The notes: generated by a model not told the origin, from the letters alone. A DNA stretch of 58,555 nt from Acidobacteriota bacterium (GCA_022562935.1 JADFOI010000003.1:1-58555), one strand, 5' to 3'; positions 16,051 to 43,365 are shown, counted from the stretch's first letter. Translations and numbers: made by a program.

Positions 16051-17179
16051 GCGGAATTTAGTCGAGAAAATCCAAGCCGAAACGGATCAGATCATTGAGC
16101 TGTTGCGCAACCTGGTAGAACTGGAGAGTCCAAGTCACCGCAAGGATCTGGTTGATCGGGTAGGGGCTCTTGTTTTGGAGCACCTGGGGGCTCAGGGATT
16201 CACCCCTCAAGTGGTCTCCCGAAAGGAAGTCGGAGATATCGTTTGGGCGGAGTGGGGCGACCAAGAAGAAGGACGCATTCTTGTTCTGTGCCACATGGAC
16301 ACGGTCTGGGAAGAGGGCAGTCTGGCCCGGAATCCATTTCGGGTCGAAGACGATCGAATTTACGGGCCAGGTGTTTTTGATATGAAGGCCGGTGTTGTGG
16401 CCACTCTGAAAATTCAAGAGTACCTGGCGCGAGGCTGGATCTGCCCGCGCCGAAAGGTGCGTTTTCTCTATACGACTGACGAAGAACTCACCAGCACTCA
16501 CAGCCGGGAATTCATTGAAGATTTTGCCCGGGAGAGTGACCTGGTGCTGATCACGGAGCCGCCGCTTCCGGGAGGTGACCTGAAGACGACTCGAAAAGGC
16601 GTGGGGAGCTACGTCGTCAAGTTCCATGGGAAGTCAGCCCATTCCGGCTTGGACCCCGAGAAGGGAATCAATGCGGTAGAGGAATTGGCACAGCAGATTG
16701 TGGGTATCCATTCTTTGTCAGCGCCTGCTTTAGGGACGACCGTGACGGTCAACGTGGTTCGAGGAGGGCATGCTCCTAATGTCATCGCGGAGTACGCTGA
16801 GGCTACCGTGGACACGCGATTCAGAACTCTTGAGGAGGGAGAGCGAGTCGATGGCGAGCTCCGCCATCTCAAGCCCCATGTCCCTGGGATTCGGCTCGAA
16901 ATCGAAGGGGGTATCGACCGACCTCCCATGGTCAAGACACCGCGCTCTGAGGAACTGCTCCAGTCGGCTCAGGAGATCGCGTCGGAATTGGGATTCGATT
17001 TAGGTGAGGGAGAGAGTGGTGGAGGAAGTGACGGGAATATCACAGCCGCCCTGGGGATTGCCACCCTGGATGGTCTGGGCATTCCTGGAGATGGAGCCCA
17101 TGCCTGGCACGAGCATATCGAGATGAGTGCCCTGGCCCCGCGTATCGCTCTGTTGGCCCGCCTGATTGAGCGTCTTTAG
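16043..17179 (+). CDS. M20 family metallopeptidase (carboxypeptidase G2-like)
   Basis: GGAGG RBS, GTG start; HMDTV, GPGVFDMKAG, DEE, EP, GGGSDGN, GDGAHAWHE. Confidence 0.92.
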   Translation: MPERNLVEKIQAETDQIIELLRNLVELESPSHRKDLVDRVGALVLEHLGAQGFTPQVVSRKEVGDIVWAEWGDQEEGRILVLCHMDTVWEEGSLARNPFRVEDDRIYGPGVFDMKAGVVATLKIQEYLARGWICPRRKVRFLYTTDEELTSTHSREFIEDFARESDLVLITEPPLPGGDLKTTRKGVGSYVVKFHGKSAHSGLDPEKGINAVEELAQQIVGIHSLSAPALGTTVTVNVVRGGHAPNVIAEYAEATVDTRFRTLEEGERVDGELRHLKPHVPGIRLEIEGGIDRPPMVKTPRSEELLQSAQEIASELGFDLGEGESGGGSDGNITAALGIATLDGLGIPGDGAHAWHEHIEMSALAPRIALLARLIERL

Positions 17180-17268
17180 CCGACGAAACGTCGGCTAAAG
17201 ACGCGTTCCAGGTTCCAGGTTCCAGTTTTGAATTTGGGATTTTGAATTTCCAGCCGGTCTGCCGGCTG
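17170..17268 (-). repeat. Hairpin-heptamer composite module
   Basis: Minus strand: CAGCCGG-CAGA-CCGGCTG, then (AAATTCA/AAATCCC)n, (CCTGGAA)n, then a perfect 16-bp-arm hairpin at 17170-17204. Confidence 0.85.
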
Positions 17269-17316
17269 GGGTCTCCCGTTTGACTAACTTCCCTGTTCTG
17301 AGTACCTTTGCTCCCC

Positions 17317-18573
17317 ATGAATGAGCCAAGGATCGTGCTGCCGGATGAGGGAGAAAAGATCACATTTGTCAACGGGAAAATACAGGTCCCGAAGAATCCC
17401 TTCATTCCTTTTATTGAAGGCGACGGTATTGGACTGGACATCTGGCGAGCGACTCGGCAAGTGTTGGATGCGGCCGTTAAAACAGCATACGGAGGAGAGC
17501 GCTCGATTGCCTGGTGTGAAGTGTTTGCGGGTGAGAAGGCCAAGAGCAAGTTCGACGAGTGGCTGCCCCAGGAAACAATTGATGCCATCTCTGATTTATC
17601 GGTGGCCATCAAGGGACCTCTGACCACTCCGGTGGGGACGGGAATTCGCAGCCTGAATGTGACGCTTCGTCAGGTTCTGGATCTGTACAGCTGTGTGCGG
17701 CCTTGTCGCTACATCGAGGGGGTTCCCTCACCGGTCAAAGAGCCGCACAAGCTCGACGTGGTCATCTATCGGGAGAACACAGAGGACGTTTATGCAGGTA
17801 TCGAATGGGAGCAGGGAAGTGAGGAGGTCAAGGAGATCATCCATTTCCTGAATTCGAAATTCTCGACCAATATTCGGGAGGATTCAGGCATTGGCGTGAA
17901 GCCGATCTCTATTTTCGGAACCCGACGCCTGGTGCGCCAAGCGATTCGTTATGCGCTGGATCACGGGCGAAGGAGTGTCACTCTGGTTCACAAGGGCAAC
18001 ATCATGAAGTTCACCGAGGGAGCTTTTAGGGACTGGGGTTATCAGCTGGCGGCTGAAGAGTTTCCGGATCTCTGTATTAGGGAAGACGAGCTGTGGGAGA
18101 AAAATGACGGCAAACTTCCGGATGGAAAGATTCTGATCAATGATCGCATCGCCGATGCCATGTTCCAACAAGTGCTCTTGCGTCCCGATGAGTACGAAGT
18201 CATCGCTTTACCGAATTTAAATGGGGACTACCTTTCCGATGCATGTGCTGCCCAGGTTGGGGGGTTGGGCCTGGCACCGGGTGCCAATATCGGCGATCGG
18301 GTGGCGCTGTTTGAGGCCACTCATGGTACGGCACCCAAATATGCGGGCCAGGACAAGGTCAATCCCGGTTCCCTGATTCTCTCGGGAGTGATGATGCTGG
18401 AGCATCTGGGATGGCAGGAATCCGCCGATCTGATTGACTCAGGCCTGCGGAAAACCATTGCTCAAAAGCGCGTCACCTATGATCTGGAGCGCCAGATGGA
18501 GGGAGCAACCCTCTTGAAGACCAGTGAGTTTGCCGCTGCAATCATTGAAAACATGAACGGTGAAGGGAGTTAA
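17317..18573 (+). CDS. icd: NADP-dependent isocitrate dehydrogenase
   Basis: [59 protein letters not shown]. Confidence 0.97.
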
Positions 18574-18574
18574 G

Positions 18575-19513
18575 ATGCGAGCGAAAGTTACCGTTGTGGG
18601 CAGCGGGGCCGTGGGCTCGACCACCGCCATGCGCCTGGTGGAGCAACAACTGGCTGATGTGGTGTTGGTGGATATCCTGGAAGGGGTTCCCCAAGGAAAG
18701 GCGCTGGACCTGGCTGAAGCAGGACCCATAGGAGGCTACGATTTTCAGCTGACAGGATCCAACGACTATGAAACCAGCCAGGGTTCGGATGTGGTGGTCA
18801 TCACGGCCGGTTTGCCCCGTAAACCCGGGATGAGTCGCGATGATCTTCTCCTGAAGAACGCCGGTATCGTGAAGGAGGTCACGGAAAACATCACTCGTCA
18901 CAGCCCCGATGCCATCATAATCGTGGTGAGTAATCCGTTGGACGCCATGTGCCAGGTGGCTAAATCCGTGAGTGGCTTTCCCAGGGAACGTCTTTTTGGA
19001 ATGGCCGGAATTCTGGATTCTGCCCGTTTCCGGAGGTTCATCGCCTGGGAGCTCAACGTGTCCGTGGAGGACACCCATGCCTTTGTTTTGGGCGGGCACG
19101 GCGACACCATGGTTCCACTGGCTCGATATTCCACCGTGGCCGGCATTCCCATAACCGAGCTGATGGCAGAAGATCGTGTGGAAGCCCTCATCCAGCGTAC
19201 CCGGGACGGGGGAGCGGAGATCGTAGGGCTGCTCAAGACGGGAAGTGCCTACTACGCTCCCTCCGCGGCGGTGGCTGAGATGGTGGCCGCCATTTTGAGA
19301 GACAAGAAGAAGATTCTTCCCTGTTGTACTTACCTTCAGGGCGAATATGGAATCAATGATTTGTACGTTGGAGTTCCGGTGAAGCTGGGCCGGAAGGGGA
19401 TGGAGCAAATCATGGAAATAAGCCTGAGCAAGGAAGAGGAAACTCAACTTCAGAACTCCGCCGCCGCCGTTCAGCAACTGGTGGATGTCTTGAAAGAAAA
19501 CGACTACCTTTAA
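18575..19513 (+). CDS. mdh: Malate dehydrogenase (LDH-like type)
   Basis: [52 protein letters not shown]. Confidence 0.96.
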
Positions 19514-19552
19514 CGATTGAAGTTCGGACCGAAACTCAATCGTAGAAAATAG

Positions 19553-19600
19553 AGAGGGGAGCTGGGGGACTGTCCCCCAACTCCCCTCTTTTCTTTCTAT
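19553..19600 (+). terminator. Probable intrinsic terminator of icd-mdh
   Basis: 17-bp GC-rich stem (one mismatch) at 19553-19589 followed by a T-rich tract that continues as a (TTTTCTA)n array. Confidence 0.6.
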
Positions 19601-19621
19601 TTTCTATTTTCTATTTTCTAT

Positions 19622-19665
19622 TCGTTAGGAACGAAGTTCGTTTTAACGAACTTCGTTCCTAACGA
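19622..19665. repeat. Perfect 21-bp-arm inverted repeat overlapping the lysA stop
   Basis: tcgttaggaacgaagttcgtt-tt-aacgaacttcgttcctaacga. Confidence 0.95.
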
Positions 19666-20887
19666 GATCCTCGTAGGTCTCTCTTTGGCGAATGAGCTGA
19701 CAATCCTCTCCGTCCACCAGAATCTCAGGGGCTCTGCGACGAGAGTTGTAATTGGAAGCGAGCACGAAGCCATAAGCTCCGACGTTCATCACGGCCAGGT
19801 AGTCCCCTATTTTCAGTGGGGGCAATAATCGGTTCCGGGCGAAAAAGTCCCCTGTTTCGCAGACTGGACCCACCACGTCCATCTCGATCGCGAGTCCTTC
19901 CTGTTGCTCGACCGGCTGGATTTCGTGATAGGCCTGATAAAGAGAAGGACGCATGAGGTCATTCATGGCCCCATCCACGATCAAAAAATGCTTTTTCTGG
20001 TTGATCTTGTGATAGAGGACCTTGTTCAACAATACGCCTGTATTTCCAACAATAAACCTTCCAGGCTCGAAGAGGATTTGATACTCCTCTCGATGTTCTC
20101 TGAGGAACTCGGCGTACGATTTTAGATCGGCCTCAGTCTCGTCCTGGTAGGGAATTCCAATTCCTCCTCCCAGGTCCAGATGCTTGATGGGCAGGCCTTT
20201 TGTCTCGAAACGGGCGGCCGCTGCCTTCAGTTCAAGAAAAGCATCCAAAAAGGGCTGGATCTCCAGAATCTGGGAGCCGATGTGACATCCCAGACCCACC
20301 AGTTGTACAGGTTGGGATTGCCTTAGCAAATCAATGATTTCCTCGATCCGATCCATGCTGATACCGAACTTGTGCTGTTGGAGGCCCGTCGCTACATAGG
20401 GATGGGTTGGGGACTCCACGTTGGGGTTCAGCCTCAATGAAATATTGGGGCGGACATTCTTTGTCTTAGCCAGGGCGATAAGGGCTTTCAATTCTTCCAT
20501 CGACTCGATATTGAGGCTCAAAAGGGGCATTTCCAGAGCCGTTTCAATTTCCTCGATGGTCTTTCCCACACCGCTGAAAATGATTCGTTCGGGATCCGCT
20601 CCAATCTTCCTCAGTGCGTAAAGCTCGCCTCCGGAGACCACGTCAAAGCCACTCCCTTCTTCCTGCAGCAAGGTCAGGATAGCCAGATTCGAGTTGGCCT
20701 TCACGGCATAGCAAATCAGCGGGTCCAGGGCTTCAAAGCTGCTGCGGAAGGAGCGGTAATTTTGGCGGATTGCATTTTTACTGTAGACGTAGCAGGGTGT
20801 ATCGAACTGTTGGGCTATCCTGCTCAGGGGAATCCCTTCACACTGGAGTTCTCCCTGATGGTAGTGAAAAGCTTGGTTGAGGACCAT
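19643..20887 (-). CDS. lysA: Diaminopimelate decarboxylase
   Basis: YAVKANSNL, FDVVSGGEL, HIGSQI, DLGGG, EPGRFIVG, GPVCETGD, GAYG...SNYNSR. Confidence 0.96.
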   Translation of the reverse strand: MVLNQAFHYHQGELQCEGIPLSRIAQQFDTPCYVYSKNAIRQNYRSFRSSFEALDPLICYAVKANSNLAILTLLQEEGSGFDVVSGGELYALRKIGADPERIIFSGVGKTIEEIETALEMPLLSLNIESMEELKALIALAKTKNVRPNISLRLNPNVESPTHPYVATGLQQHKFGISMDRIEEIIDLLRQSQPVQLVGLGCHIGSQILEIQPFLDAFLELKAAAARFETKGLPIKHLDLGGGIGIPYQDETEADLKSYAEFLREHREEYQILFEPGRFIVGNTGVLLNKVLYHKINQKKHFLIVDGAMNDLMRPSLYQAYHEIQPVEQQEGLAIEMDVVGPVCETGDFFARNRLLPPLKIGDYLAVMNVGAYGFVLASNYNSRRRAPEILVDGEDCQLIRQRETYEDLVRNEVR

Positions 20888-20970
20888 GAGCTGAAGACGA
20901 GGATCTTAACAGAGGGGGTTCGAGGGTGTCTACTTTGCCGGTATCGGATAGCAGGCCCTGGCGTTAGAAT

Positions 20971-21978
20971 GTGTCCATCGTGGCAACTGAATTCGATGTG
21001 GTTACCGGAGGGGCGGGTTTTATCGGTTCCCATCTATGCCGCGCTCTTTTGAGACAGGGTCGAAAGGTTCGCATCCTGGACAACTTTTCCACCGGCACCC
21101 GGGAGAACCTGGCACAGATACAGAAACAGCACCCGGATCAATGTGAGGTTTACGAGCAGGATATTCGTGAGTTGAGCGAGCTGAAGAAACTCTTCCAGGA
21201 GGCGGGTACAATCTACCACCAGGCCGCCATCACCTCGGTCCAAAAATCTGTGGAAGATCCACTGGAGTGCAACAGCGTCAATGTGGAAGGGACTTTAAAG
21301 GTTTTGGTGGCAGCGAAAGCTGCGGGAGCTAAAAAGGTAATCTTTGCCAGCAGCACTTCCGTTTATGGGGACTCTGAGCTTCTTCCCAAGAGAGAGGAGA
21401 TGAAACCCGAGCCAATTTCTCCTTATGCTGTGACCAAGTATGTGGGCGAGCTTTACTGCAAGATTTTCTCAGAAATACACAAGTTGCCGACTCTTGCACT
21501 GCGTTACTTTAACGTTTTTGGTCCCAACCAGGATCCGAAATCCGAGTACGCCGCCGTAGTGCCCCGTTTTATTTCCCGAACCCTGGCAGGAGAAAGTCCC
21601 ATCATCTACGGTGACGGAGAACAAAGCCGGGACTTTATCTTTGTCGAAGACGTGGTCGCAGCCAATCTTCTGGCGGCTGCTTCAGATGTTCAGGGAACCC
21701 ATCTGAATGTCGCATGTGGCCAGGCATTTACGGTCAATGAAGTGGCCAGGATGATTAATGAAATTCTGGGTCTGGACCTCGAGCCGATCTACGAATCTGC
21801 TCGTCTCGGAGACGTCCGCCGTTCAGAGGCCGATATCTCCCAGGCCAGCAAGCTCATTGATTTCAAGCCTAAGTGCTCACTCCGCAACGGTTTGAGCCAA
21901 ACGGTGGAGTGGTTTCAGAACAAGGGCGAAGGGTCTGGCGGAGGTTCTAAAGGAGGTTCTAACGGAGGGAGCCAGTGA
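20971..21978 (+). CDS. NAD-dependent nucleotide-sugar epimerase/dehydratase (extended SDR)
   Basis: VTGGAGFIGS, ASSTSVYG, SPYAVTK (YxxxK), LRYFNVFGP, RDFIFV. Start could be GTG 20980. Confidence 0.93.
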   Translation: MSIVATEFDVVTGGAGFIGSHLCRALLRQGRKVRILDNFSTGTRENLAQIQKQHPDQCEVYEQDIRELSELKKLFQEAGTIYHQAAITSVQKSVEDPLECNSVNVEGTLKVLVAAKAAGAKKVIFASSTSVYGDSELLPKREEMKPEPISPYAVTKYVGELYCKIFSEIHKLPTLALRYFNVFGPNQDPKSEYAAVVPRFISRTLAGESPIIYGDGEQSRDFIFVEDVVAANLLAAASDVQGTHLNVACGQAFTVNEVARMINEILGLDLEPIYESARLGDVRRSEADISQASKLIDFKPKCSLRNGLSQTVEWFQNKGEGSGGGSKGGSNGGSQ

Positions 21979-21979
21979 T

Positions 21980-23272
21980 ATGGATCTAAAAGAGAAAATA
22001 TTGAGCAAGAAGGCCCAGATCGGTGTCGTCGGTGTGGGCTACGCCGGGCTGCCTCTAGCCATGGAATTTGCGCGCAGTGGCTTCAAGGTGCACGGCATCG
22101 ATGTGGATGATGAAAAGGTCAAGGATCTCAATGAAGGGAAGTCCCACATTGAGGACGTCAAGGACGACATGCTCCAGTTTGCCATCCGTGCAGGATGCTT
22201 CGAGGCTCACTCAGACTATGAAGTCGTCTCACAGTTGGACTGTGTGATTCTGTGTGTTCCCACCCCTTTGCGGCAGACCAAGGATCCCGATATCAGCTAT
22301 ATCGTCGATGCGGCCCAGGCCGTCAAAAAACACCTGCACAAGGATATGCTGATCGTTTTGCAGAGCACCACCTATCCGGGTACCACCGAAGAAGTCGTGA
22401 GGGCGGAGTTTGAGAGTGAGAATGTGCAAATCGGCAAGGATCTTTTCCTGGGGTTTTCTCCCGAGCGGATCGATCCAGGCAACCTCAAGTTCACCATCAA
22501 GAACACCCCCAAGATCGTGGGGGGGATCACCCCTCAATGCACCGAGATGGCCAAGACGCTTTATGAGCAAGTCATTGATAGGGTGATTCCTGTATCTTCG
22601 GCAGCCGCGGCGGAAATGGTAAAGCTGCTAGAGAACACTTTCAGGGCTGTGAACATAGGGCTGGTCAACGAAATTGCCATCATGTGCGAAAAACTGGGAA
22701 TCTCTGTCTGGGAAGTCATCGAGGCTGCCGCCTCCAAACCCTTTGGCTTCATGCCCTTTTTCCCGGGTCCCGGTCTGGGTGGACACTGTATTCCCATCGA
22801 TCCTCTCTACCTGTCCTGGAAATTAAAGATGCTCAACTACAATGCGCGTTTTATTGAATTGGCAAGTGAAGTCAACACTCAAATGCCGGAATATTGTGTC
22901 TATCGAATCGTGGGAGTCCTGAACCGGAATCAAAAGTGTGTGAATGGGACAAAGGTCCTGCTTATTGGCCTGACTTATAAGAAGGACGTCAGCGATGTGC
23001 GCGAATCCCCCGCTCTGGACATCATGCGGCTGCTGGAAAAGGGGGGGGCGCAGGTGGACTATTCGGATCCCTATGTTTCACAATTGAGCATTGATGATGT
23101 CGTGAAGAAATCCGTGTCTCTTGAGCCAGCAACCATCCAGGAGTACGACCTGCTGGTGATGGTGACCGATCATTCCGCTTTTGATTACGCAATGATCCAG
23201 AAGTCGGCACAGTTGATTTTCGATGCGCGAAACGTTTTCAGAGAGGCTTTTGACAACGTGGTCAAGCTCTGA
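21980..23272 (+). CDS. Nucleotide-sugar dehydrogenase (UDP-GlcNAc C6 dehydrogenase-like)
   Basis: GVGYAGLP, CVPTP, STTYPGTT, SPERIDPG, KLLENTFR, GGHCIPIDP, YKKDVSDVRESP. Confidence 0.93.
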   Translation: MDLKEKILSKKAQIGVVGVGYAGLPLAMEFARSGFKVHGIDVDDEKVKDLNEGKSHIEDVKDDMLQFAIRAGCFEAHSDYEVVSQLDCVILCVPTPLRQTKDPDISYIVDAAQAVKKHLHKDMLIVLQSTTYPGTTEEVVRAEFESENVQIGKDLFLGFSPERIDPGNLKFTIKNTPKIVGGITPQCTEMAKTLYEQVIDRVIPVSSAAAAEMVKLLENTFRAVNIGLVNEIAIMCEKLGISVWEVIEAAASKPFGFMPFFPGPGLGGHCIPIDPLYLSWKLKMLNYNARFIELASEVNTQMPEYCVYRIVGVLNRNQKCVNGTKVLLIGLTYKKDVSDVRESPALDIMRLLEKGGAQVDYSDPYVSQLSIDDVVKKSVSLEPATIQEYDLLVMVTDHSAFDYAMIQKSAQLIFDARNVFREAFDNVVKL

Positions 23273-23305
23273 AAGTCATGGTGGGTGTGTTGAAGCGGGT
23301 ATGAT

Positions 23306-25640: not shown

Positions 25641-25655
25641 ACCGACGGAAAACCC

Positions 25656-26726: not shown

Positions 26727-26735
26727 GAGCCTCTA

Positions 26736-26882
26736 GCGCGCTTCGCGCGCGTTCCAGGCTCCAGGTTCCAGGTCCTAGTTTTGAATTTTGGATTTGGAAT
26801 TTGTTGGGGCCTGAGAATTTTGGATTTTGAATTTCAGCTGAGAGCTGACGGAAGTCAGCTCTCAGCTGTCAGTTCTCAGCTG
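26736..26882 (-). repeat. Hairpin-heptamer composite module between convergent genes
   Basis: Minus strand: (CAGCTGA)-type array, 15-bp-arm hairpin with TTCC loop, (AAATTCA/C)n, (CCTGGAA)n, GCGCGCGAAGCGCGC. Confidence 0.85.
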
Positions 26883-27625: not shown

Positions 27626-27661
27626 AGGTATTCCTCCTTTATTAGGTCACGAGAGATTTCC

Positions 27662-27970: not shown

Positions 27971-28084
27971 TCTTGAATCCTCCTTTACCCTATCCTCATC
28001 CTCAATTCCGCTCCTCGCATTTTCGTGCCTACCCAGTAAGTATACTTTTTATACCCAGACATAGAAAATCTAAATTTCGCCGCC

Positions 28085-28195
28085 GACCACAGACCACAGC
28101 CGGAAGAGCGGCTGAAATCCAGAAGCTCAAATTCCAAATTCCAAAGATATTCCAAATTCAAAACGGGAACCTGCATAAACGCGCGCGAAGCGCGC
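28085..28195 (+). repeat. Hairpin-heptamer composite module
   Basis: (GACCACA)2, CAGCCGGAAGAGCGGCTG, (AAATTCC/AAATTCA)n, GCGCGCGAAGCGCGC. Confidence 0.85.
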
Positions 28196-28285
28196 TGGGG
28201 GAGTTTGGTGCTAGCCCCAAGGATTTTCCTTTGAATACAGGGGTTTACGCCAGAATTCTGGGACTGTCCCAGAAATGAATTTTTT

Positions 28286-30381: not shown

Positions 30382-30404
30382 GGCCCAACCTTACAATAGG
30401 AGGA

Positions 30405-30553
30405 AACAACAGACAACAGACAATAGCCAACAGCCGGCAGACCGGCTGAAATTCAAAATTCAAGATTCCAAATTCAAAACGAATTCCTTTTTTCTTTTTT
30501 CTGCGCGCGAAGCGCGCTGAGACCGCAGACCAGCTGATGGCGCGAAAGCTGAC
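30405..30553 (+). repeat. Hairpin-heptamer composite module
   Basis: (ACAACAG)n, CAGCCGGCAGACCGGCTG (30431-30448), (AAATTCA)n, GCGCGCGAAGCGCGC (30503-30517). Confidence 0.85.
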
Positions 30554-30568
30554 AGGAGACCCACTCTC

Positions 30569-32389: not shown

Positions 32390-32589
32390 GGCGAGCCAGT
32401 GGCTCGCCCGAACAGTTAGGATGGCACCCGCTCGTGGTAGGACGCAGTCAGAGCCGTGGGCTTTAGCCCACGGGCCAGCCGCTGACCCCTAGGGAGGCCA
32501 GGGGCACCCGCTTGCGAGTCGCGCAGTCGGTGCAGCACGCCGGATGGTTTTGCTGCTGTAGTAGAGAATTTATGAATAGTTCCGGCTAG
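32389..32589. repeat. Cluster of REP-like palindromes plus CTAG-terminated repeat copy 3
   Basis: GTAG-GGCGAGCCAGTGGCTCGCC; CCGTGGGCTTTAGCCCACGG; 32501-32589 similar to 15081-15173. Confidence 0.7.
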
Positions 32590-32605
32590 AGAAAGGACGA
32601 GAAGC

Positions 32606-34088: not shown

Positions 34089-34089
34089 A

Positions 34090-34293
34090 ATGACGGTTAA
34101 GATCCCAAAACAGTTTGACAGTAAATTCAGGTTTATTCTGGTGGCCGCAGAACGTGCCAAGCAGCTCCAGCATGGAGCACCTCCAAGAATCAAGTCTCAG
34201 TCAAGAAAGCCGGCTACGATCGCTGTGGAGGAGGTGGAGCAAAACCTTGTTCCTTTTGTCATTCTCAAGCCGGGGAAAAGAAAAGAAAAGTGA
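34090..34293 (+). CDS. rpoZ: RNA polymerase omega subunit
   Basis: DSKFRFILVAAERAKQLQHGA; position between gmk and coaBC. Confidence 0.92.
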   Translation: MTVKIPKQFDSKFRFILVAAERAKQLQHGAPPRIKSQSRKPATIAVEEVEQNLVPFVILKPGKRKEK

Positions 34294-35522
34294 AAATTAT
34301 TCTCGCTGTAACCGGTTGCATCGGAGCCTATAAGTCGGCCGTCGTCCTCCGCCTGTTGCAAAAAGAGGGTTTTGAGATCCTTCCGGTCATGACTCAGGCT
34401 GCCCAACAGTTTATTACCCCCCTGACTTTGGAGAAGCTGTCCGGTCACAAGGTGGTTTCCGATCTATTCAGCGATCATACCGTTCAAATTGAGCATATCC
34501 ATCTGGCTCGAGAGAGTCATCTCCTGCTGGTGGCCCCGGCTACCGCCAATATCCTGGCCAAATTTGCCCAGGGCATCGCCGATGATTTCTTGAGTACGCT
34601 TTACCTGTCCACCGTCACACCCGTCATCGTTGCACCTGCCATGAATGTTGAGATGTGGCACCATAAAGCCACGCGGAAGAACCTGGAGATTCTGAGGGAA
34701 AGAGGAGTGGAGGTGGTGGAACCCGGCTCCGGCTATCTCGCCTGCGGGGAAGAGGGCGAAGGGCGTTTAGCAGAGCCCGAACATATCTTGGAGGCGGTGT
34801 TGAACACTTTCAGGCGGGAGAAATCTCTGCTGGGAAAGAGGGTGCTCATTACCGCAGGACCCACCATTGAGGACCTGGATCCGGTTCGGTTTATTTCCAA
34901 TCGCTCCTCCGGAAAGATGGGTTATGCCCTGGCCGGGGAGGCTCAGTCGCGGGGTGCTCAGGTGGTGCTGGTCTCAGGACCTACCCAACTTGAACCTCCG
35001 GAAGGGGTAAATCTGGTCCGGGTTCGCTCTGCTTCAGAGATGGCCAAAGCTGTCTTTCAGCACTTTGCCCGTTCCGATGTGGTGGTGATGGCAGCAGCGG
35101 TTTCCGATTTCACTCCAGCCAATGTCTCCTCAGAAAAGATAAAAAAGAAAGATGCGAAGCCGGTCATCCACCTGGAGAAAACGGTGGATATCCTGAAGCG
35201 ACTGGGTCAGCGAAAAGAGTGGCAATTTGTGGTCGGATTTGCTGCTGAATCGGGAGCAGTGCGGGAGAATGCCCGTAGGAAGCTTCAGGAAAAGGGATTG
35301 GACCTGATTGTAGGAAACGATATCTCCCCACAGGATCAAGGCTTTGAATCCGATTTCAACCAGGTCATCGTCATCGATAGTGACGGGAAGGAAGAGGAAT
35401 TTCCTCTCCTCCCCAAGACGGATGTGGCACGCATCCTCTGGGATAAAATTGAAACGCGCTGCGCGCAAAGAGCCGCAAACCGCAGACCACAGACCGTAGA
35501 CCACATACCGCAGACCGGCTGA
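34290..35522 (+). CDS. coaBC: Bifunctional phosphopantothenoylcysteine decarboxylase/synthetase
   Basis: VTGCIGAYK, APATAN, PAMNVEMW, LACGEEGEGRL, TAGPTIEDLDPVRFISNRSSGKMG, GFAAE. Confidence 0.97.
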   Translation: MKIILAVTGCIGAYKSAVVLRLLQKEGFEILPVMTQAAQQFITPLTLEKLSGHKVVSDLFSDHTVQIEHIHLARESHLLLVAPATANILAKFAQGIADDFLSTLYLSTVTPVIVAPAMNVEMWHHKATRKNLEILRERGVEVVEPGSGYLACGEEGEGRLAEPEHILEAVLNTFRREKSLLGKRVLITAGPTIEDLDPVRFISNRSSGKMGYALAGEAQSRGAQVVLVSGPTQLEPPEGVNLVRVRSASEMAKAVFQHFARSDVVVMAAAVSDFTPANVSSEKIKKKDAKPVIHLEKTVDILKRLGQRKEWQFVVGFAAESGAVRENARRKLQEKGLDLIVGNDISPQDQGFESDFNQVIVIDSDGKEEEFPLLPKTDVARILWDKIETRCAQRAANRRPQTVDHIPQTG

Positions 35523-35634
35523 ATGGATGTCGCCACGTATTGAGTGTCTTAACTTCTGGATCCTGGATTCTCGTTCTGTCGGGACTCTGACTCCTCAAGT
35601 TCTGTTTGCGGTCTGTGGTCTGCGGTCTGTGGTC
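35479..35634. repeat. Inverted pair of ACC(G/A)CAG heptamer arrays
   Basis: 5 units at 35479-35513 inside the coaBC 3' end; 4 complementary units at 35607-35634. Confidence 0.9.
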
Positions 35635-35646
35635 TGTTGAATCGTC

Positions 35647-36627: not shown

Positions 36628-36699
36628 GAAGCTCAACGCTTCTTAACGGCTTCTTACTTTCGTCTGCTATTGGGTCTGTGGTCTGTGGTTTGTTGAATC

Positions 36700-37332: not shown

Positions 37333-37351
37333 GAGAGAAGACAGGAAACCC

Positions 37352-37432
37352 CAGCCGGAAGACCGGCTGAAATTCAAAATTCAAAATCCCAAACTAGAAC
37401 CTGGAACCTGAATTCCGAAATCAAAACTTGGA
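37352..37432 (+). repeat. Hairpin-heptamer composite module
   Basis: CAGCCGGAAGACCGGCTG, (AAATTCA)n, (CCTGGAA)-type units. Confidence 0.85.
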
Positions 37433-37441
37433 ACAATTCTT

Positions 37442-39700
37442 GTGAGCGCTCTCTTTGCCGATGTGGCCGTGCCTCTCCCTCTCTTCCAGACTTTCACCTA
37501 CTCTGTCCCGGATTCCCTCGGGGACGAGCTTCACCCCGGGTGTCGTGTCTTGGTGCCTTTCGGTACCCGTCATTTGGTCGGTTTGGTGACCCAATTGCAC
37601 CGGGAATCTCGGGAGGGAACGGTCAAACCCATTCTCGAGACTCTGGACCGGAAACCTCTTTTATCTCCTCCACTGCTCAAGCTTGGCCTGTGGGTGGCTT
37701 CTTACTATCTTGCTCCGCCAGGTGAGGCGCTGCGAGTGATGTTACCACCCGGGTTGTTGGCGAAGAAGGTGGCGCTGGATGAAGACCAACCAGTGCAGCG
37801 GTTTTGGCCGACCAAACAACGCTTGGCTGTGGTGGAGATGACCTCTGTTGAGGTCAAATTGACGGCAAGGCAGGAGGAAGTTGTTGAGTTGCTGAGTCAA
37901 AGGACTCTTCCCGTGGCGGTGCAGCCGTTTTTAAGGGATGTGGGGTGTAGTCCGTCGGTACTTCAAAAACTGGTCTCTAAAGGGATCATCCGAATGGAAG
38001 CGGTTGAGAGCTATCGTTCCCCCTGGGCTCAGTCTGAGACCTTTCCGGAAGTCCAAAAGCACGACCTGAACAAGGATCAGCGCCGAATCTTCGAAAAGAT
38101 TGACCAGCACCTCTCCATGAACCGATTTCACAGCATGCTGATCCATGGTGTTACGGGAAGCGGGAAGACCGAGATTTACCTGAACGCCATCGCCAGTACG
38201 CTAGCTCGCGGAAGATCAGCGCTGGTTCTGGTTCCGGAAATCGGGTTGACTCCTCAGATCTCCCGTTATTTTCGAGCCTGGTTTGGAGAAGAGGTGGCTA
38301 TTTTACACAGTGCCCTCTCGGTAGGAGAGCGCTTTGATCAATGGCGGAGAATCCGAGACGGCCAGGCTCGTGTGGTGGTGGGAACCCGTTCAGCCGTTTT
38401 TGCTCCACTCGCTGAGTTAGGAATCATCATTGTGGATGAAGAGCACGACAGTTCCTACAAACAAGAGGAATTGCCGCACTACCATGCTCGTGACGTGGCC
38501 CTCAAACGGGGAGAACTCGAACAAACGTTGGTGATCCTGGGTAGTGCAACTCCTCAGTTGGAGACGTTTTATAACTCTGTCCATGGCGGAGCCCCCGAGT
38601 ACGAGGCTCTCAATTCACGGATTCTGGAACGTCCTCTTCCAACCGTACACGTGGTCGACATGCGGGTCGAGTTTCAAAAGCGAGGCAAAGCGGTTGTCCT
38701 GTCCCAACACCTTCAGGAATCCATCGCCGAAAGGTTGGATCGCAAGGAGCAGGTCCTGATCTTGTTGAATCGGCGGGGATACGCGTCGGTCCTGCTGTGT
38801 CGAAGCTGTGGGAATACAGAGATCTGCGAAAACTGCAGCCTTAGCCTCACCTATCACCAGGATTCCAACCGCTTACTTTGCCACTATTGTGGGTATCTGA
38901 GGTCTGTTCCCCAACGATGTCGAGCCTGCGGCAACAAGTATATTCACTTCCTCGGTCACGGCACCCAGAAGGTTCAGGAAATCCTGAGAACTCTCTTTCC
39001 GAAAGCAGCCATAGCCCGTTTGGATCGGGACACGGTCCAGAGGAAGGGGAGTCTCCAAAGGATTCTGGGGGCTTTCGGGTCGGGTCAGACCGATATCCTG
39101 ATTGGAACCCAGATGATCGCCAAGGGACACGATTTCCCACGCGTCACGCTGGTGGGAGTTTTAACTGCTGAGCAAGCTCTTCGGATGGCCGACTTTCGTG
39201 CTTCGGAAAGAACCTTTCAACTTCTCACCCAAGTTGCGGGGCGAGCAGGAAGAGGAGAACAGCCCGGGGAAGTGATCATCCAGACCTACTATCCCGATCA
39301 TTACAGCCTGAAACACGCTCGTTCTCAAAATTACCGGCTCTTTTTTGAGGAGGAGATCCGTTTCCGGCGCAATTTTCGCTATCCCCCCTTCACAGCCCTG
39401 GCCAACCTCATGGTCCAAGGGCGACCCCAGGCGAAGACCCGGCGGGCGGCAGAACAGGTAGCTGACCTGTTACTTCGGCAACGGACACGCCTTTCAGCTC
39501 AACGGCGCATGCGGGTTCTTGGACCTGCCCAGGCACCTCTTGAGAAACTCAAGGGCGATTATCGGTTCCAGATTTTGATCAAGAGCACCAATCGAAAAGA
39601 GCTTCATGAAGTGCTCGAGTCTGCCATGGAAGAGCTGAGCCAGAAGAGAGTCAAGATAAGAAAGCCTTCCATTGATATTGACCCGATGAACTTGCTCTAA
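37442..39700 (+). CDS. priA: Primosomal protein N'
   Basis: GVTGSGKTEIY, LVPEIGLTPQ, DEEHD.SYKQ, LNRRGY, CxxC zinc motifs, GTQMIAKG.DFP. Confidence 0.97.
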   Translation: MSALFADVAVPLPLFQTFTYSVPDSLGDELHPGCRVLVPFGTRHLVGLVTQLHRESREGTVKPILETLDRKPLLSPPLLKLGLWVASYYLAPPGEALRVMLPPGLLAKKVALDEDQPVQRFWPTKQRLAVVEMTSVEVKLTARQEEVVELLSQRTLPVAVQPFLRDVGCSPSVLQKLVSKGIIRMEAVESYRSPWAQSETFPEVQKHDLNKDQRRIFEKIDQHLSMNRFHSMLIHGVTGSGKTEIYLNAIASTLARGRSALVLVPEIGLTPQISRYFRAWFGEEVAILHSALSVGERFDQWRRIRDGQARVVVGTRSAVFAPLAELGIIIVDEEHDSSYKQEELPHYHARDVALKRGELEQTLVILGSATPQLETFYNSVHGGAPEYEALNSRILERPLPTVHVVDMRVEFQKRGKAVVLSQHLQESIAERLDRKEQVLILLNRRGYASVLLCRSCGNTEICENCSLSLTYHQDSNRLLCHYCGYLRSVPQRCRACGNKYIHFLGHGTQKVQEILRTLFPKAAIARLDRDTVQRKGSLQRILGAFGSGQTDILIGTQMIAKGHDFPRVTLVGVLTAEQALRMADFRASERTFQLLTQVAGRAGRGEQPGEVIIQTYYPDHYSLKHARSQNYRLFFEEEIRFRRNFRYPPFTALANLMVQGRPQAKTRRAAEQVADLLLRQRTRLSAQRRMRVLGPAQAPLEKLKGDYRFQILIKSTNRKELHEVLESAMEELSQKRVKIRKPSIDIDPMNLL

Positions 39701-39707
39701 TGTAAGA

Positions 39708-41225
39708 GTGAAAACGGTTCGAATCCATGGCGAAGTTTTGGAGAAGATGGTTGAACATGCTCGTCGTGAATACCCACTGGAGTGTTGTGGGCTCTTGTCA
39801 GGCAGCGGTTGGGAGATCGATGGCATACAAGCAACCGGGAATCAAAGACAGAGCCGTGAAGAATTTTTCGTCCCGGTTGAGGAACTCTTTGCATTTTTTA
39901 GAGGATTGCGGCGAAGTGGCAGAGAACATCTAGGGATTTACCATTCTCATCCCACGTCCAGGAGCCTTCCTTCCTCTCGTGATGTGGCCGAGTTTCACTA
40001 TCCGGAGGTGAGTTACTGGATTGTTTCCCTGAAGGGAGAAGAGCCGGATGTCCGCTGTTTTCGCTGGGACAAAAGGGATTTTAAAAATGTTGACTTTGAG
40101 GTGTATGAAGATCACGGAAAACGGCCACAACAGTGTAAAATGAAATCAGTGCAGACAATCCCGAGAGAACCGGACATTTTTGCCAATATTCGAGATTCGG
40201 CTCCCGTTGAGCTGCTGGGTTTTCTGGATCAAATTGTCCTCCTGTTGCCTGAGGGGTCCAGATATCGTCTCAAGCAGGTCTTCGATTCTTTGCCTCCCCA
40301 GGGCGATAATCTGCAAAAGGTCCTGGAGCTGGTTCGGAGTCAATGGAAGGACATTCAATCTCAGGAGTGGGTCCGAATCGCAATTGTCGGTCCGGGACAG
40401 ACAGGAAAATCCTCACTCCTTGCTGCGCTGTCCAGACGACAACGGGCTGGATCGACGCCCATCTTCACCCTGGTCGATATTCATGACGAGTATCTGGGTT
40501 TCAAACCCGATGAGACGCTGTCTGAGAAACTCAGGGATTTCGACCTCATCCTGTTGATTCTGGATGGTCGATATGAGCTCTCCAATAGCACAACGGAAAT
40601 GTATGAGAGACTCAACAGCTTGAATAGGCCGGTCCTGGTTGTCCTCAACAAGATCGATCTGGTCCAGACGCCTCGGGATGCGGTCAGAGCGGCCCGAAGG
40701 CGTTTGGGAACCAGCGTATTTGCTACCTCTGTGGATCAACCGGCAACTATTGAGCAACTCTTGAAAGCAATTCTGGACACGGACCCAAAGACCCTTTCTT
40801 CCCTGAGTCAAAATTTTCCAGACTTCCGTCGCGGTATCTGTCATGGAATCGTCAGCCAGGCCGCACTTTCGGGAGCCATCGTGGGGGCCATTCGAATTCC
40901 CATAGCCGACCTTTTACCCATAATGGCCATTCAGACGGGAATGCTCTTGAAGATCGCGCGGACTTTCGGATATCCACTTAACCGGGAAAGAGCCCGAGAG
41001 CTGCTGCCCATGTTGGCGGCTGGAGTTGCCGTCCGAGAGGGGAGCCATTGGCTGAGACGCCGCTATCCCGAATATCGGAAACTTATTTCCATATCCGTTG
41101 CGGGAATCTGGACTTTTGTTCTAGGACATGCGGCCGTTCAATATTTCGACGGTTTGTCCAATTTTCTGAACGACGATCGATCCGCTGACTTTCCGTCGCC
41201 TGCCATGGGTTGGGAGATTCACTGA
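39708..41225 (+). CDS. JAB/MPN (M67) metalloprotease fused to a P-loop GTPase-like and DUF697-like domain
   Basis: PLECCGLL...YHSHP....PSSRD JAMM motif; GPGQTGKS, NKID; hydrophobic GAIVGAIRIPIADLLPIMAIQTGML. One open frame in the track. Confidence 0.8.
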   Translation: MKTVRIHGEVLEKMVEHARREYPLECCGLLSGSGWEIDGIQATGNQRQSREEFFVPVEELFAFFRGLRRSGREHLGIYHSHPTSRSLPSSRDVAEFHYPEVSYWIVSLKGEEPDVRCFRWDKRDFKNVDFEVYEDHGKRPQQCKMKSVQTIPREPDIFANIRDSAPVELLGFLDQIVLLLPEGSRYRLKQVFDSLPPQGDNLQKVLELVRSQWKDIQSQEWVRIAIVGPGQTGKSSLLAALSRRQRAGSTPIFTLVDIHDEYLGFKPDETLSEKLRDFDLILLILDGRYELSNSTTEMYERLNSLNRPVLVVLNKIDLVQTPRDAVRAARRRLGTSVFATSVDQPATIEQLLKAILDTDPKTLSSLSQNFPDFRRGICHGIVSQAALSGAIVGAIRIPIADLLPIMAIQTGMLLKIARTFGYPLNRERARELLPMLAAGVAVREGSHWLRRRYPEYRKLISISVAGIWTFVLGHAAVQYFDGLSNFLNDDRSADFPSPAMGWEIH

Positions 41226-42139
41226 TGGGGCAAGGCGGCAGGGAGGAACTGGCTGAGTTGGCTTTGGGGCGTCGCAAGGGAACGCGCTCCTTGCGCATTG
41301 CACTCCTCATTACCGCGATCTTTCTGATGGTGGAGTTTGTGGGCGGCCTGTGGACCAACAGTTTGGCTCTATTGGCGGATGCCGGACACATGCTCACAGA
41401 TGCCGCTGCATTGAGTCTGAGCCTGTTTGCAATGGGGTTCATTCTCCGCCCAGCTACTTCCGAGAAAACCTATGGCTACTTCAGGGTGGAGATCTTAGCT
41501 GCCCTGATCAACGGTTCGGCTTTGTTGGTGATTGCCTTTTTTATCCTTTACGAAGCCTACCAGCGTTTCCTGCAGCCGGAGGCGATAAAAAGTCTGGAGA
41601 TGCTGGTGATTGCAGCTGCGGGTCTGGTGGCGAACCTGACTTGTGCTCGCATCCTGCACCAATGTGAGGTCGACAGTCTCAATATTCGAGGAGCTTATCT
41701 GCATGTGATAGGAGACGTTCTGGGCTCCGTGGGTGCCATCCTTGCCAGCCTGGTCATCTTGTTCTGGAAGGCTTATTGGGCCGATCCCGCAATCAGTGTT
41801 CTGGTCAGTTTCCTCATTCTGTACAGTGCCTGGAAGTTGGTCAAGGATGCCGTTTTAGTCCTCTTGGAGGGCACGCCGTCCCATGTCAATTTGGCGGCAA
41901 TGAAGCAGGCCCTTTGTAAGGTTGCGGGGGTGGACTCCGTTCACGATCTTCATGTCTGGACATTGACTGCCGGTGTGCATGCCATGACTTGTCATGCAGT
42001 GGTGGCTCAGGCCAACGGCCGGCGTCGGATCCTGGAGCAACTCATTTCCGTCTCTCGGGAGCAATTCAACATTCTTCACGCGACGATTCAGATCGAACAT
42101 GAAAATCCCTGTCCCAATGAAACAACTTTTTGTCATTAG
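41225..42139 (+). CDS. Cation diffusion facilitator (CzcD-like)
   Basis: SLALLADAGHMLTD (TM2), GAYLHVIGD (TM5), VHDLHVW, HATIQIE. ATG overlaps the upstream TGA. Confidence 0.93.
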   Translation: MGQGGREELAELALGRRKGTRSLRIALLITAIFLMVEFVGGLWTNSLALLADAGHMLTDAAALSLSLFAMGFILRPATSEKTYGYFRVEILAALINGSALLVIAFFILYEAYQRFLQPEAIKSLEMLVIAAAGLVANLTCARILHQCEVDSLNIRGAYLHVIGDVLGSVGAILASLVILFWKAYWADPAISVLVSFLILYSAWKLVKDAVLVLLEGTPSHVNLAAMKQALCKVAGVDSVHDLHVWTLTAGVHAMTCHAVVAQANGRRRILEQLISVSREQFNILHATIQIEHENPCPNETTFCH

Positions 42140-42197
42140 CCCCTACCCTCGCTTTCCGAGGTCGGAACTGTCTGGAAGAAAGGACCCGTCCAACTAG

Positions 42198-43079
42198 ATG
42201 CCCAAAGAGTTTGACAGGAAGTCTTCGGATTCGAAGCGTCCGACTGAAGATGATACAGGGGGGCCGCCCGTCAACCGGCCCCTTCAACAGAGTCCGGAGA
42301 CGCTTGCACTCAACTATAACTGGATCGGGCAGTTTCAGAGCCAGCATTCCGACTATTCGTTTGTCAAGAATGAGGAGATTCCCTGGACCGATCTCAAGGT
42401 GGACCTGTTTGAAGCGCGTGTGGCTCTTGTGACCACGGTGGGAGTTCACCTCAAGGATCAGAAGCCCTTCAGTATCTCTCCGGGAGAGATCACCCCGGAG
42501 TTGTCCCAGTTCAATTTCCGGGAAAAGGGAGATCCTAGTTTACGCCTGATACCGGCATCAGTGGATGTCAGCGAGTTGTGGATTGCCCATCCCTATCTGG
42601 ATGTGAGTGGGGTAGAAGAAGATGTCAACGTCGTTTTTCCCTTGAAAAGGCTGCAAGAACTGGAGGAGGAGAACGTCATCGGAGAGATCGCCACTCAACA
42701 TATTTCCTTTATGGGCTACGTGCCCAACCCGGTGGACCTGGAACTTTCTGCAAAGGATGCCGTTGAACACCTCAGGCAAGATCAAGTTGACCTTGTTGTG
42801 CTGACTCCAGGCGAAGTCTTGAGCCACCAGAGTATGGTGGTGATCCAGCGAGCCATTGAAGCAGCCGGCATTGCCACCATCAGCATCGCCCTCTGTCGCG
42901 ATGTGGTGGAATCGGTAGGAACACCCCGATCGGTTCATTACGGTTTTCCCTTCGGGTTTACTCTGGGAGAGCCCAACGATCAGGCAGTCCAGCTGAGAAT
43001 CCTGAAGGATACGCTTCGCTCCCTGGAGGACATCGACCAACCGGGAACCATCGTGGATCTCCCCTACGAATGGGTATGA
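42198..43079 (+). CDS. GrdB/PrdB (reductase selenoprotein B) family homologue without Sec
   Basis: RVALVTT.G.HL..Q.PF, GDPS.R.IP, D.NVVFPL.RL.EL, SFMGY, VIQRAIEAAGIAT, GTPR. Confidence 0.82.
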   Translation: MPKEFDRKSSDSKRPTEDDTGGPPVNRPLQQSPETLALNYNWIGQFQSQHSDYSFVKNEEIPWTDLKVDLFEARVALVTTVGVHLKDQKPFSISPGEITPELSQFNFREKGDPSLRLIPASVDVSELWIAHPYLDVSGVEEDVNVVFPLKRLQELEEENVIGEIATQHISFMGYVPNPVDLELSAKDAVEHLRQDQVDLVVLTPGEVLSHQSMVVIQRAIEAAGIATISIALCRDVVESVGTPRSVHYGFPFGFTLGEPNDQAVQLRILKDTLRSLEDIDQPGTIVDLPYEWV

Positions 43080-43365
43080 CCGCTGACGGCCAGCCATCAG
43101 CGGAAATTCAAAATTCAAAACTCCAAATTCCAAACAAATTCAAAATACCAAACACAAAACCACAGCCGGAAGACCGGCTGAAATCCGAAATCCAGAATCC
43201 CACATCCGAAACGTGACTTCTTCCCATGTCTCCTATCCCCCTTTCCCTCGTCTGTAGTCGCAGTTGTTTCGAATTTTGAATTTGAAATTTTGAATTTGGA
43301 GTTTTGAATTTCAGCCGGTCTTCCGGCTGTGTCTTCCGTCAGCTGTTAGTTGTCAGCTGTCAGCT
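43080..43365. repeat. Largest hairpin-heptamer cluster (two head-to-tail modules plus one inverted)
   Basis: Hairpins at 43080-43103, 43163-43180 and 43312-43329 (inverted), each flanked by AAAT(T/C)C-type 7-mers; CTGTCAG array at the end. Confidence 0.88.

Follow-up and report, generated by a model that had tools for sequence, protein, structure and literature searches.

Hairpin-capped heptamer arrays of fixed polarity in the gene spacers of an uncultured Acidobacteriota genus

We analyzed a 58,555-nt stretch of DNA (the window), which is contig C154 of a 3.44-Mb Acidobacteriota assembly (GCA_022562935.1, here G000) comprising 188 contigs with 54% G+C. Genes were called with a simple codon-score method, yielding 2639 genes and 83% coding DNA. 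An earlier note, made from the sequence of the window, had pointed to six sites at which a GC-rich hairpin is followed by tandem heptamers. The genes flanking these sites are ordinary housekeeping genes, and reading the sites one by one, we found that all six indeed hold hairpin-heptamer modules. Arrays of AAATTCA/AAATCCC-type heptamers (A arrays) lie flush with a short-loop GC hairpin, H1, on one side only. The complete order is U heptamers, H1, A heptamers, W or T heptamers, a second hairpin termed H2, and then often O octamers. To tokenize the genome, we defined the word classes A (AAAYYYN), W (AACCTGG/CCTGGAA type), T (TTTTCTA type), U (CTGACAA/CAGACCA type) and O (CACGAAAG octamers), together with the perfect hairpins H1a, H1b, H1c and H2. 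H1 comprises three sequence families, each of them strongly conserved: H1a with the exact stem CAGCCGG-N4-CCGGCTG, H1b (CCGCTGAC...GTCAGCGG) and H1c (CCGGCC-GGA-GGCCGG). H2 is GCGCGC-GAA-GCGCGC (GCGCGCGAAGCGCGC).

Copy 1 (17170-17269, minus strand) is antisense to its flanking genes and consists of a 16-bp hairpin (17170-17204), GTTCCAG heptamers (17205-17225), TGAATTT-type heptamers (17224-17249) and H1a (CCAGCCGGTCTGCCGGCTGG, 17250-17269). It is located exactly between a stop codon and a conserved promoter-like element, TTGACT-17-TAAGTT. Copy 2 (26736-26868, minus strand) fills a convergent spacer with H2 (GCGCGCTTCGCGCGC, 26736-26750), GTTCCAG heptamers (26751-26774), TGAATTT-type heptamers (26777-26834) and a 15-bp H1b-type hairpin (26835-26868); its folding z is -8.5 on the plus and -7.8 on the minus strand. 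Copy 3 (28097-28195, plus strand) starts with an imperfect H1a (CAGCCGGAAGAGCGGCTG, 28097-28114), continues with decayed AAATTCC heptamers (28115-28173) and ends with H2 (GCGCGCGAAGCGCGC, 28181-28195). The TTTTCTA-type copy 4 (30406-30517, plus strand) is made of CAGACAA heptamers (30406-30430), H1a (30431-30448), AAATTCA heptamers with the landmark AAAACGAATTC (30449-30488), TTTTTCT heptamers (30489-30502) and H2 (30503-30517). Copy 5 (37352-37432, plus strand) is sense to its flanking genes and has no second hairpin, with H1a (37352-37369) being followed by AAATTCA (37370-37395) and AACCTGG-type (37398-37432) heptamers. Three units on both strands make up copy 6 (43080-43365): H1b (CCGCTGACGGCCAGCCATCAGCGG, 43080-43103) with its A array (43104-43160), H1a (43163-43180) with its A array (43181-43211), and an inverted unit of TGAATTT heptamers (43266-43311), H1a (43312-43329) and GTCAGCT heptamers (43338-43365). 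When this region (43080-43377) is folded as single-stranded DNA, the inverted A arrays form one long stem with z = -10.

The module words also bear on translation. Three CTGACAA units place a TGA in all three frames of the forward strand (e.g. 30406-30430), and the reverse strands of A arrays (TGAATTT, 43266-43311) and T arrays (TAGAAAA, 30489-30502) have stops in all frames. As 7 is not a multiple of 3, the stops fall in three frames, and translation that runs into a module, from whichever side, terminates within 21 nt.

The order seen in the window recurs throughout the assembly. We counted positions after orienting every A array of at least 21 nt alike. H1a, whose 7-bp stem is identical at all 58 loci, precedes the A array 50 times and follows it twice; the corresponding counts are 32 and 0 for H1b and 13 and 0 for H1c, or 95 and 2 for all H1 families pooled. 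H2 is found on the other side (33 times 3', once 5'). W arrays share the strand of the A array in 58 of 60 cases and lie 3' of it in 49, T arrays are 3' and on the same strand in 16 of 16 cases, and O octamers in 16 of 17; U arrays are 5' and on the same strand in 32 of 46. A-rich heptamers adjoin the H1a stem on one side only, and its loop, read on the A-array strand, is CAGA, AAGA, CGGA or GAGA in 45 of 54 oriented copies. A perfect hairpin of at least 6 bp directly borders 118 A arrays at the 5' end and 16 at the 3' end, while 52 of 168 A arrays, some of them inner fragments of split arrays, have no abutting hairpin. Where H1c is found inside an A array, AAATCN plus CCGGCCGGAGGCCGG measures 21 nt (6 + 15) in five of five cases, which may not be independent of each other. 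The order is replicated in 80 independent metagenome loci (W 31:6, T 12:0, H2 18:1, H1b 9:0, H1c 6:0); these loci were chosen by their H1a+A junction, and only the remaining relations thus count as replication. Inverted module pairs are tail-to-tail in 17 cases and head-to-head in one, and gene-less inverted pairs of arrays have a polarity fixed for each class (A 21:1, U 10:0, W 4:0, T 2:0, O 10:0). Hairpins and inverted pairs are very stable on folding, with z from -2.8 to -10. The claim of the earlier note that differing first hairpins face the same way in a module of fixed polarity, and that arrays are associated with hairpins, is thus borne out genome-wide. Its suggestion that structure rather than sequence is conserved does not agree with the identical H1a stems, or with the landmarks and the order of unit variants that copies share (see below).

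Tandem Repeats Finder reports 62 short arrays in the window, mostly of period 7. Period 7 accounts for 538 arrays totaling 15.5 kb across the whole assembly, compared with 64 arrays of period 6 and 243 of period 8, and the commonest heptamer words are AAAATTC, AACCTGG, AAATTCC, AAAATAG and AACTGAC. Arrays of period 7, 14 or 21 make up 2.4% of intergenic but 0.125% of genic DNA, a 19-fold higher density between genes, and only 6 of the 168 A arrays lie inside genes. Modules occupy about 141 of the roughly 1560 spacers of at least 40 nt and amount to about 21 kb. Contig ends of relatives and of this short-read assembly often fall at modules: nine arrays here are at contig edges, and contig C299 of the relative G004 terminates at window position 37438. 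Copy numbers in fragmented genomes are consequently underestimates. Modules are also found in a 10-contig and in a single-contig assembly of the genus, and they are therefore no artefacts of short-read assembly.

The nearest relatives of the TsaD gene in the window are found in uncultured Acidobacteriota genomes (85-92% protein identity). Every one of the seven genus genomes carries the junction of H1a with AAAT (3-48 copies), whereas 34 further genomes from the family and order, long-read assemblies included, have none; a reversed control pattern gave no match. At least 119 stretches of metagenome contigs contain the junction, whereas viral contigs yielded no match, and we rejected a viral or plasmid vector on this ground. 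In relatives as distant as about 74% identity, the syntenic region is rich in period-7 arrays made of other words, which are sparse in other phyla.

We compared the window with genus relatives at 95% (G004), about 92% (L002), 91% (G006, locus L003), 89% (G005, locus L004, 10 contigs) and 77-80% (G003, one contig) DNA identity, in which gene order is kept over 6.5-54 kb of the window. The copy 1 site holds a W-type module in the window and a T plus W type in G005, and it is empty in G003, where the 36-nt spacer corresponds to the conserved promoter-like stretch that follows the module elsewhere. At the copy 3 site the module is intact in G006, an H1b hairpin takes its place in L001, and G005 has CTGACCA-type heptamers only. 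The copy 4 site is filled in the window (4 A and 2 T units), in G006 (9 A units, no T unit) and in G005 (4 A and 4 T units). L002, which is nested among these filled relatives, is empty, with a clean junction inside CTGACAA/CAGACCA heptamers. In G003 (L097; window 30382-30568), this site is occupied by about 12 Shine-Dalgarno-like CAGGAGG/TAGGAGG words in tandem, together with H2 and with CCTCCTG units in inverted orientation. Copy 5 is represented in G006 by a module with other unit numbers, and no module is found in G005, where the spacer measures 31 nt, or in G003, where it measures 8 nt. The middle H1a unit of copy 6 is missing from G004, whose flanks are 95% identical, and the A arrays are missing from G005. 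Copies 1, 3, 4, 5 and 6 thus vary among the window, G004, G006, L002, G005 and G003, a presence/absence polymorphism as expected for miniature inverted-repeat transposable elements (MITEs). Orthologous spacers record gains and at least one clean loss, and unit numbers are hypervariable, in line with the unit-number change anticipated by the earlier note. No target-site duplication is seen when filled and empty orthologous sites are compared, and no constant target word flanks the modules.

Unrelated loci share landmarks that are not periodic, namely AAAC within the A array and AAAACGAATTC between A and T arrays, and dispersed copies have an identical irregular succession of unit variants. In eight aligned T-type copies, the gaps are whole heptamers (7, 14 or 21 nt). 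Together with the filled and empty orthologous sites, the shared landmarks and unit-variant order argue for the dispersal of preformed composite copies, followed by slippage. The copies descend from shared templates, and short gene spacers acquire and lose them. Once in place, they are altered by gain or loss of whole heptamers, by module swapping and by changes that keep or extend the hairpin arms.

The hairpins themselves are well maintained, as 107 of the 116 that abut A arrays have perfect stems and 9 are imperfect. The 15-bp hairpin of copy 2 has two compensated arm changes in L002 and L003 (CAGCTGAG to CCGCTAAG), and H2 variants such as GCGGGC-GAA-GCCCGC are compensated as well. The second hairpin of copy 1 is not the usual H2: in its outer 10 bp, the last codons of the upstream M20 peptidase gene (GCGTCTTTAG) pair with their own inverted copy, and this gene end is also conserved in the relatives G005 and G003. 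Other hairpin arms are built from neighboring words, as in (CCGCTGA)2 plus its inverse or in (CAGCCGGAAGACCA)3 before an H1a. Templated events thus seem to shape the hairpins, as in the compensatory arms at 26835-26868 and the inverted gene-end copy at 17170-17204. We infer that template switching within quasi-palindromes, a known mutational process, keeps the stems perfect; selection on folding would give the same picture.

The share of spacers that hold a module is 18.9% between convergent genes, 7.2% between tandem genes and 4.1% between divergent genes. In tandem spacers, 47 modules are sense, such that the mRNA reads H1 first, versus 23 antisense (p = 0.006). The gene boundary that H1 faces is a stop codon in 64 cases and a start codon in 23. 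From stop to H1 the median distance is about 7 nt, and 19 of 57 close cases measure 0-4 nt. Many genes end in the TGA of a CTGAC word. We did not accept a rule by which modules target stop codons, as their far end is also near the next gene, and flanking words and stop codons vary. An apparent orientation of 56:7 sense to the nearest gene in convergent spacers was put down to geometry and discarded: with a short H1 and a long 3' part, the array always comes to lie nearer to the gene on the H1 side, and only tandem spacers are therefore informative. By contig skew, a proxy in this fragmented assembly, the forward strand of the module lies on the G-rich strand 73:51 (p = 0.06), and genes are split 60:40 likewise; sense and antisense modules number 30:9 for leading-strand and 8:5 for lagging-strand genes.

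On balance, we lean towards reading the six sites as members of one genus-specific, polar, non-autonomous mosaic family of extragenic repeats. Such a family would spread by copy-and-paste without target duplication, either through a trans-acting enzyme or by recombination through the flanking heptamer arrays. Unit numbers would change by replication slippage, and perfect stems would arise through template switching within quasi-palindromes. Copies may survive where they are least harmful or of some use, that is directly behind stops, in convergent spacers and in sense orientation. The hairpins would probably end up in the 3' ends of mRNAs, as do the repetitive extragenic palindromic (REP) hairpins of E. 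coli, and the modules might act as 3'-end barriers.

Several findings weigh against this interpretation. No two copies are identical, and there is consequently no sign of very recent transposition. Neither a target duplication nor a constant target word accompanies the insertions, and the loss of copy 4 in L002 could have occurred by deletion between flanking heptamers rather than by excision. The far end of a module is a median of 16 nt from the next gene; modules largely fill spacers that were formerly tiny, and the short distance between stop and H1 is thus partly geometric. The strand split equals the gene bias, which makes the sense bias inseparable from a replication-strand bias. As the earlier note had stated for the window, no responsible enzyme is encoded there, and we found no mobilizing enzyme for the modules in the genome either, in a search that did not extend to reverse transcriptases. 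No transposase lies between H1 and H2 ends, and long module-bearing spacers hold ordinary genes missed by the caller; an autonomous parent element with the same ends was looked for in these long spacers and discounted. The genome has three Y1 (IS200/RAYT-type) genes, where RAYT stands for REP-associated tyrosine transposase. The number of modules does not track Y1 genes across the genus, as G005 has 19 H1a modules and no Y1 gene, and G003 has 3 modules and two Y1 genes. There is also no Y1 gene in 560 kb of module-bearing metagenome contigs.

Two of the three Y1 genes are flanked by their own, different REPs, and the third has no repeat flanks. The flanking REP families (GCCCTGAAGGGGCG... and GGCACCTGAGGTGCC...) are neither H1 nor H2. 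The RAYT-like Y1 genes L081 and L083 on contig C21 each carry their own REP (GCCCTGAAGGGGCGGCAGGGAATAGCCCAGGG... and GAATGTGGGAGGCACCTCAGGTGCC). A period-21 array at 15020-15076 of the window (CCTGAGGTCCCTCCCATATT) resembles the second Y1-REP family, which is also present in the L005 spacer.

A gene of another kind is related to the module words. The sole S23p gene of the genome (L221, C77:25607-25921, minus strand; PF05635/TIGR02436) encodes a four-helix bundle with 2GSC and 2RLD as the nearest structures. Upstream of it are two units, each of GCGCGCTTCGCGCGC plus a GTTCCAG array, and a CCTGGAAC array begins at its stop codon; its arms thus consist of the W words and the H2 hairpin of the modules, with the same W-H2 junction. 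The six window modules carry no open reading frame (ORF), whereas an S23p cassette has one between inverted arms, and the arms of L221 therefore point to a relation and not to membership. We sampled 151 Acidobacteriota genomes, found the gene in 85, and fetched 30 loci from genomes other than G000 and its genus (the S23p loci considered here, inside and outside the genus, are L220-L223, L225, L228 and L230-L259). In 22 of these 30, inverted arrays of period 7 or 8 enclose the S23p gene; their word differs by lineage, and it matches the word dispersed in the same genome. Bracketing by inverted arrays of the same class is seen for 18 of the 2639 genes of G000. Within the genus, S23p copies have arms of W (CCTGGAA), U (CTGACAA) or CAGGAGG words, and behind the stop of one gene lie an H1a-like hairpin and an A array, the only case of H1+A beside S23p, and on one side. 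The gene-less inverted pairs of W and U arrays have the polarity of the S23p arms.

Dispersed words and arm words can be compared in seven genus genomes. (NAGGAGG)3 is found 189 times in G003, which has CAGGAGG and U arms, 8 times in G002, and not at all in the five other genomes. CCTGGAA-type arrays number 66 in G000, 56 in G004 and 36 in G002, all three with W arms, a second copy in G002 having a TGTCAGC array on one side. There are 118 in G001, with arms of CCTGACC/GGTCAGG (period 8-9) and a second copy that is the one with the H1a-like hairpin and A array, and 96 in G006, with GGTCAGGC octamers on one side. The lowest counts are 14 in G005, which has no S23p gene, and 6 in G003. The link between dispersed word type and arm type is suggestive, and it comes from few independent lineages.

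We weighed four other explanations. Modules could be gene-less or chimeric arms of the S23p cassette; H1 + A would then be a left-type arm and W/T + H2 the right-type arm to which it is joined, and the protein or the process that moves the cassette would make or spread the arrays. The W-H2 junction in the L221 arms, the arm words across the genus, the rarity of bracketing among other genes set against its frequency at S23p loci, the fixed polarity of gene-less pairs, and the counts of (NAGGAGG)3 and CCTGGAA-type words, which are high where arms are of the same or a related type, all speak for such an origin. Yet the H1+A core adjoins an S23p gene only once, G005 keeps its H1a modules without any S23p gene, the covariation comes from about two or three independent lineages, and the protein has no known activity; the gene may just be located within arrays that already existed, or its arms may have been homogenized with them. 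We consider this origin rather unlikely. With the same reserve, the polar, hairpin-capped arrays that fill spacers here would be products of a system centered on the S23p/Avd-like gene, and the modules its gene-less, recombined left and right arms. It is similarly doubtful that the gene travels between inverted heptamer arms, and that the arms or a trans-acting protein seed the arrays specific to each lineage.

Alternatively, the modules may be 3'-end devices selected by the host, in which the caps would stop transcription or block 3' exonucleases, the arrays would serve as spacers, and the likeness among copies would be due to concerted evolution. The enrichment in convergent spacers, the 2:1 sense bias and the position of H1 0-12 nt behind many stops would fit such a role, as would the perfect stems, the placement of copy 1 and the fact that modules occupy whole spacers that must otherwise hold terminators. 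A scan of the window for canonical hairpin-plus-T terminators gave 32 hits versus 22.5 +/- 5.9 in shuffles, and 26 versus 19.9 +/- 4.3, barely above chance. However, intrinsic terminators have a U run behind the GC hairpin, and none follows the module hairpins in either orientation: H1 is followed by A-rich words (AAAUUCA), and H2 by octamers or, on the other strand, GUUCCAG. One third of the copies in tandem spacers are antisense, orthologues in sister genomes manage with spacers of 8-36 nt and no module, and the free variation in copy content argues against purifying selection on each copy, so that we regard a host device as quite unlikely. Very unlikely is a REP/REPIN system (REPINs being REP doublets forming hairpins) moved in trans by a RAYT, a Y1 enzyme of the IS200 group, acting on H1 or H2. 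Extragenic palindromic units in inverted doublets that fold as long hairpins (17:1 polarity), the absence of target duplication, the one clean loss, the strand-asymmetric and conserved loops as expected for single-strand recognition, and the presence of Y1 genes agree with it, but these genes carry REPs of their own, and neither copy number nor the metagenome contigs tie them to modules. Finally, the earlier note had considered templated or primed addition, in which a polymerase or reverse transcriptase would add heptamers in place at each hairpin and arrays would grow outward. Arrays do abut the hairpin directly and only on one of its sides, neighboring words make up some hairpin arms, and one arm copies the adjacent gene end. 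Against this, dispersed copies share non-periodic landmarks and an irregular order of unit variants, orthologous sites are filled or empty, and many A arrays, including inner fragments of split ones, stand without an abutting hairpin; growth at each hairpin is hardly probable.

Rfam has no family for the module at gathering or E <= 1 thresholds, and neither there nor in the literature searched did we find a description of a named family with this layout, in agreement with the earlier note, or of such repeats in Acidobacteriota. The modules are closest in kind to REPs, bacterial interspersed mosaic elements (BIMEs) and REPINs and to the short tandemly repeated repetitive (STRR) sequences of cyanobacteria with their lodged mini-hairpins, and they depart from REP-RAYT systems and MITEs in defining features. 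BIMEs combine palindromic units and fixed linker motifs in mosaics. Like REPs, BIMEs and REPINs, the modules are high-copy extragenic palindromes (58 H1a loci, 141 spacers, 6 of 168 arrays in genes) with fixed linkers in mosaics of fixed order, inverted doublets that fold as long hairpins (17:1), a lineage-specific sequence, a location behind genes rather than in promoters, and no target duplication; the REP/REPIN elements of enterobacteria and Pseudomonas served for comparison (PMC3116915, PMC3337134). Here, however, the linkers are heptamer or octamer arrays that vary in unit number, the caps at the two ends are unlike each other, and no RAYT gene is flanked by module hairpins, with G005 lacking Y1 genes altogether. 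The module ends are different hairpins (H1, H2) rather than the terminal inverted repeats of MITEs, and no target duplication is seen. Palindrome-associated IS200/IS605 elements have subterminal hairpins at both ends, make no target duplication and insert beside a fixed word of 4-5 nt on one replication strand. The modules show hairpins at both ends and no duplication; no constant word flanks them, and their strands are split 73:51, equal to the gene-strand bias.

STRR words include CCCCAGT, TTGGTCA and CAACAGT. These heptanucleotide repeats of heterocystous cyanobacteria were reportedly described by Mazel in 1990, and small dispersed repeats (SDRs) lodged in the heptamer repeats of Nostocaceae are said to have been reported by Elhai in 2008. 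We know of no STRR or SDR description with a fixed order of several arrays between two cap hairpins. PMC5861425 cites Elhai 2008. The STRR repeats and the modules both have several families of intergenic tandem heptamers with hairpin units inside arrays, H1c keeping the 7-nt register here; the modules differ in their Acidobacteriota host, in words and hairpins, and in the long fixed order of several array types between two caps. A cyanobacterial origin, suggested by this likeness, was rejected given the host. The TAACTGA direct repeats of marine Beggiatoaceae, cyanobacteria and Bacteroidetes, mostly located just upstream of start codons (PMC4679880), are likewise intergenic tandem heptamers, and their word is one base from the CAACTGA/CTGACAA class that precedes H1, but they are described without hairpin caps or ordered partner arrays, and the modules lie mainly behind stops. 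Geobacter metallireducens has multicopy intergenic sites of 3-5 tandem heptamers, mostly inverted pairs at variable distance, which were read as IHF/HU binding sites (PMC2700814), and for which no cap hairpins or multi-array order are reported. The intervening sequence of 23S rRNA in Coxiella and Leptospira (PMC4990558) contains an S23p ORF, a small four-helix-bundle gene of the same family between inverted arms able to pair. The S23p cassette here instead lies between protein genes and has heptamer arrays as arms, and the modules themselves are gene-less.

Tandem heptamers have been on record since 1990 from a scattering of bacteria and, to our knowledge, have no accepted origin or role. This lineage is an unusually clean case, with a strict order, restriction to one genus, filled and empty sister sites, and one sister genome that has few arrays and neither candidate gene, and these features together make origin and use directly testable. 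If the arrays did derive from S23p, this would provide a source for STRR and similar bacterial heptamer repeats and a role for a widespread protein of unknown function. With regard to use, the question is whether the hairpins shape mRNA 3' ends in a phylum with poorly known terminators. In practical terms, modules break short-read assemblies and are metagenome markers for an uncultured Acidobacteriota genus.

Further array and hairpin features are found in the window. An inverted CAGACCA/CAGACCG pair spans a spacer at 35473-35637, with a plus arm at 35473-35517 and a TGGTCTG arm at 35607-35637. Its arrays are of the word class that precedes H1, same-class pairs genome-wide share its polarity (10:0), and the orthologous spacers in L003-L007 have inverted arrays of other unit variants. 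A TGTCTGT/TGTCAGC array of the U class (10423-10476, minus strand) stands alone without an A module. A convergent spacer contains H2 (GCGCGCTTCGCGCGC, 49202-49216) and CTGTCAG heptamers (49342-49362) on the minus strand. Copy 3 is abutted by a second dispersed repeat of about 80 nt (GGGGGAGTTTGGTGCTAGCCCCAAGGATTTTCCTTTGAATACAGGGGTTTACGCCAGAATTCTGGGACTGTCCC, 28196-28275), which is also present on contigs C37 and C38 and in spacers of relatives (L003 spacer A, L004 spacer B) and looks like a separate MITE-like family. The spacer at 32390-32605 (216 nt) is packed with GC-rich hairpins (GGCGAGCCAGTGGCTCGCC, GCCGTGGGCTTTAGCCCACGGGC) of a variable repeat family not built from heptamers; its orthologues are shorter, at 22 (G006), 46 (G003) and 157 nt (G005). 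The most terminator-like site of the window is the convergent spacer at 19514-19642, where a 17-bp hairpin (AGAGGGGAGCTGGGGGAC...) is followed by four TTTCTAT units; the orthologous spacer in G005 is 4 nt long.

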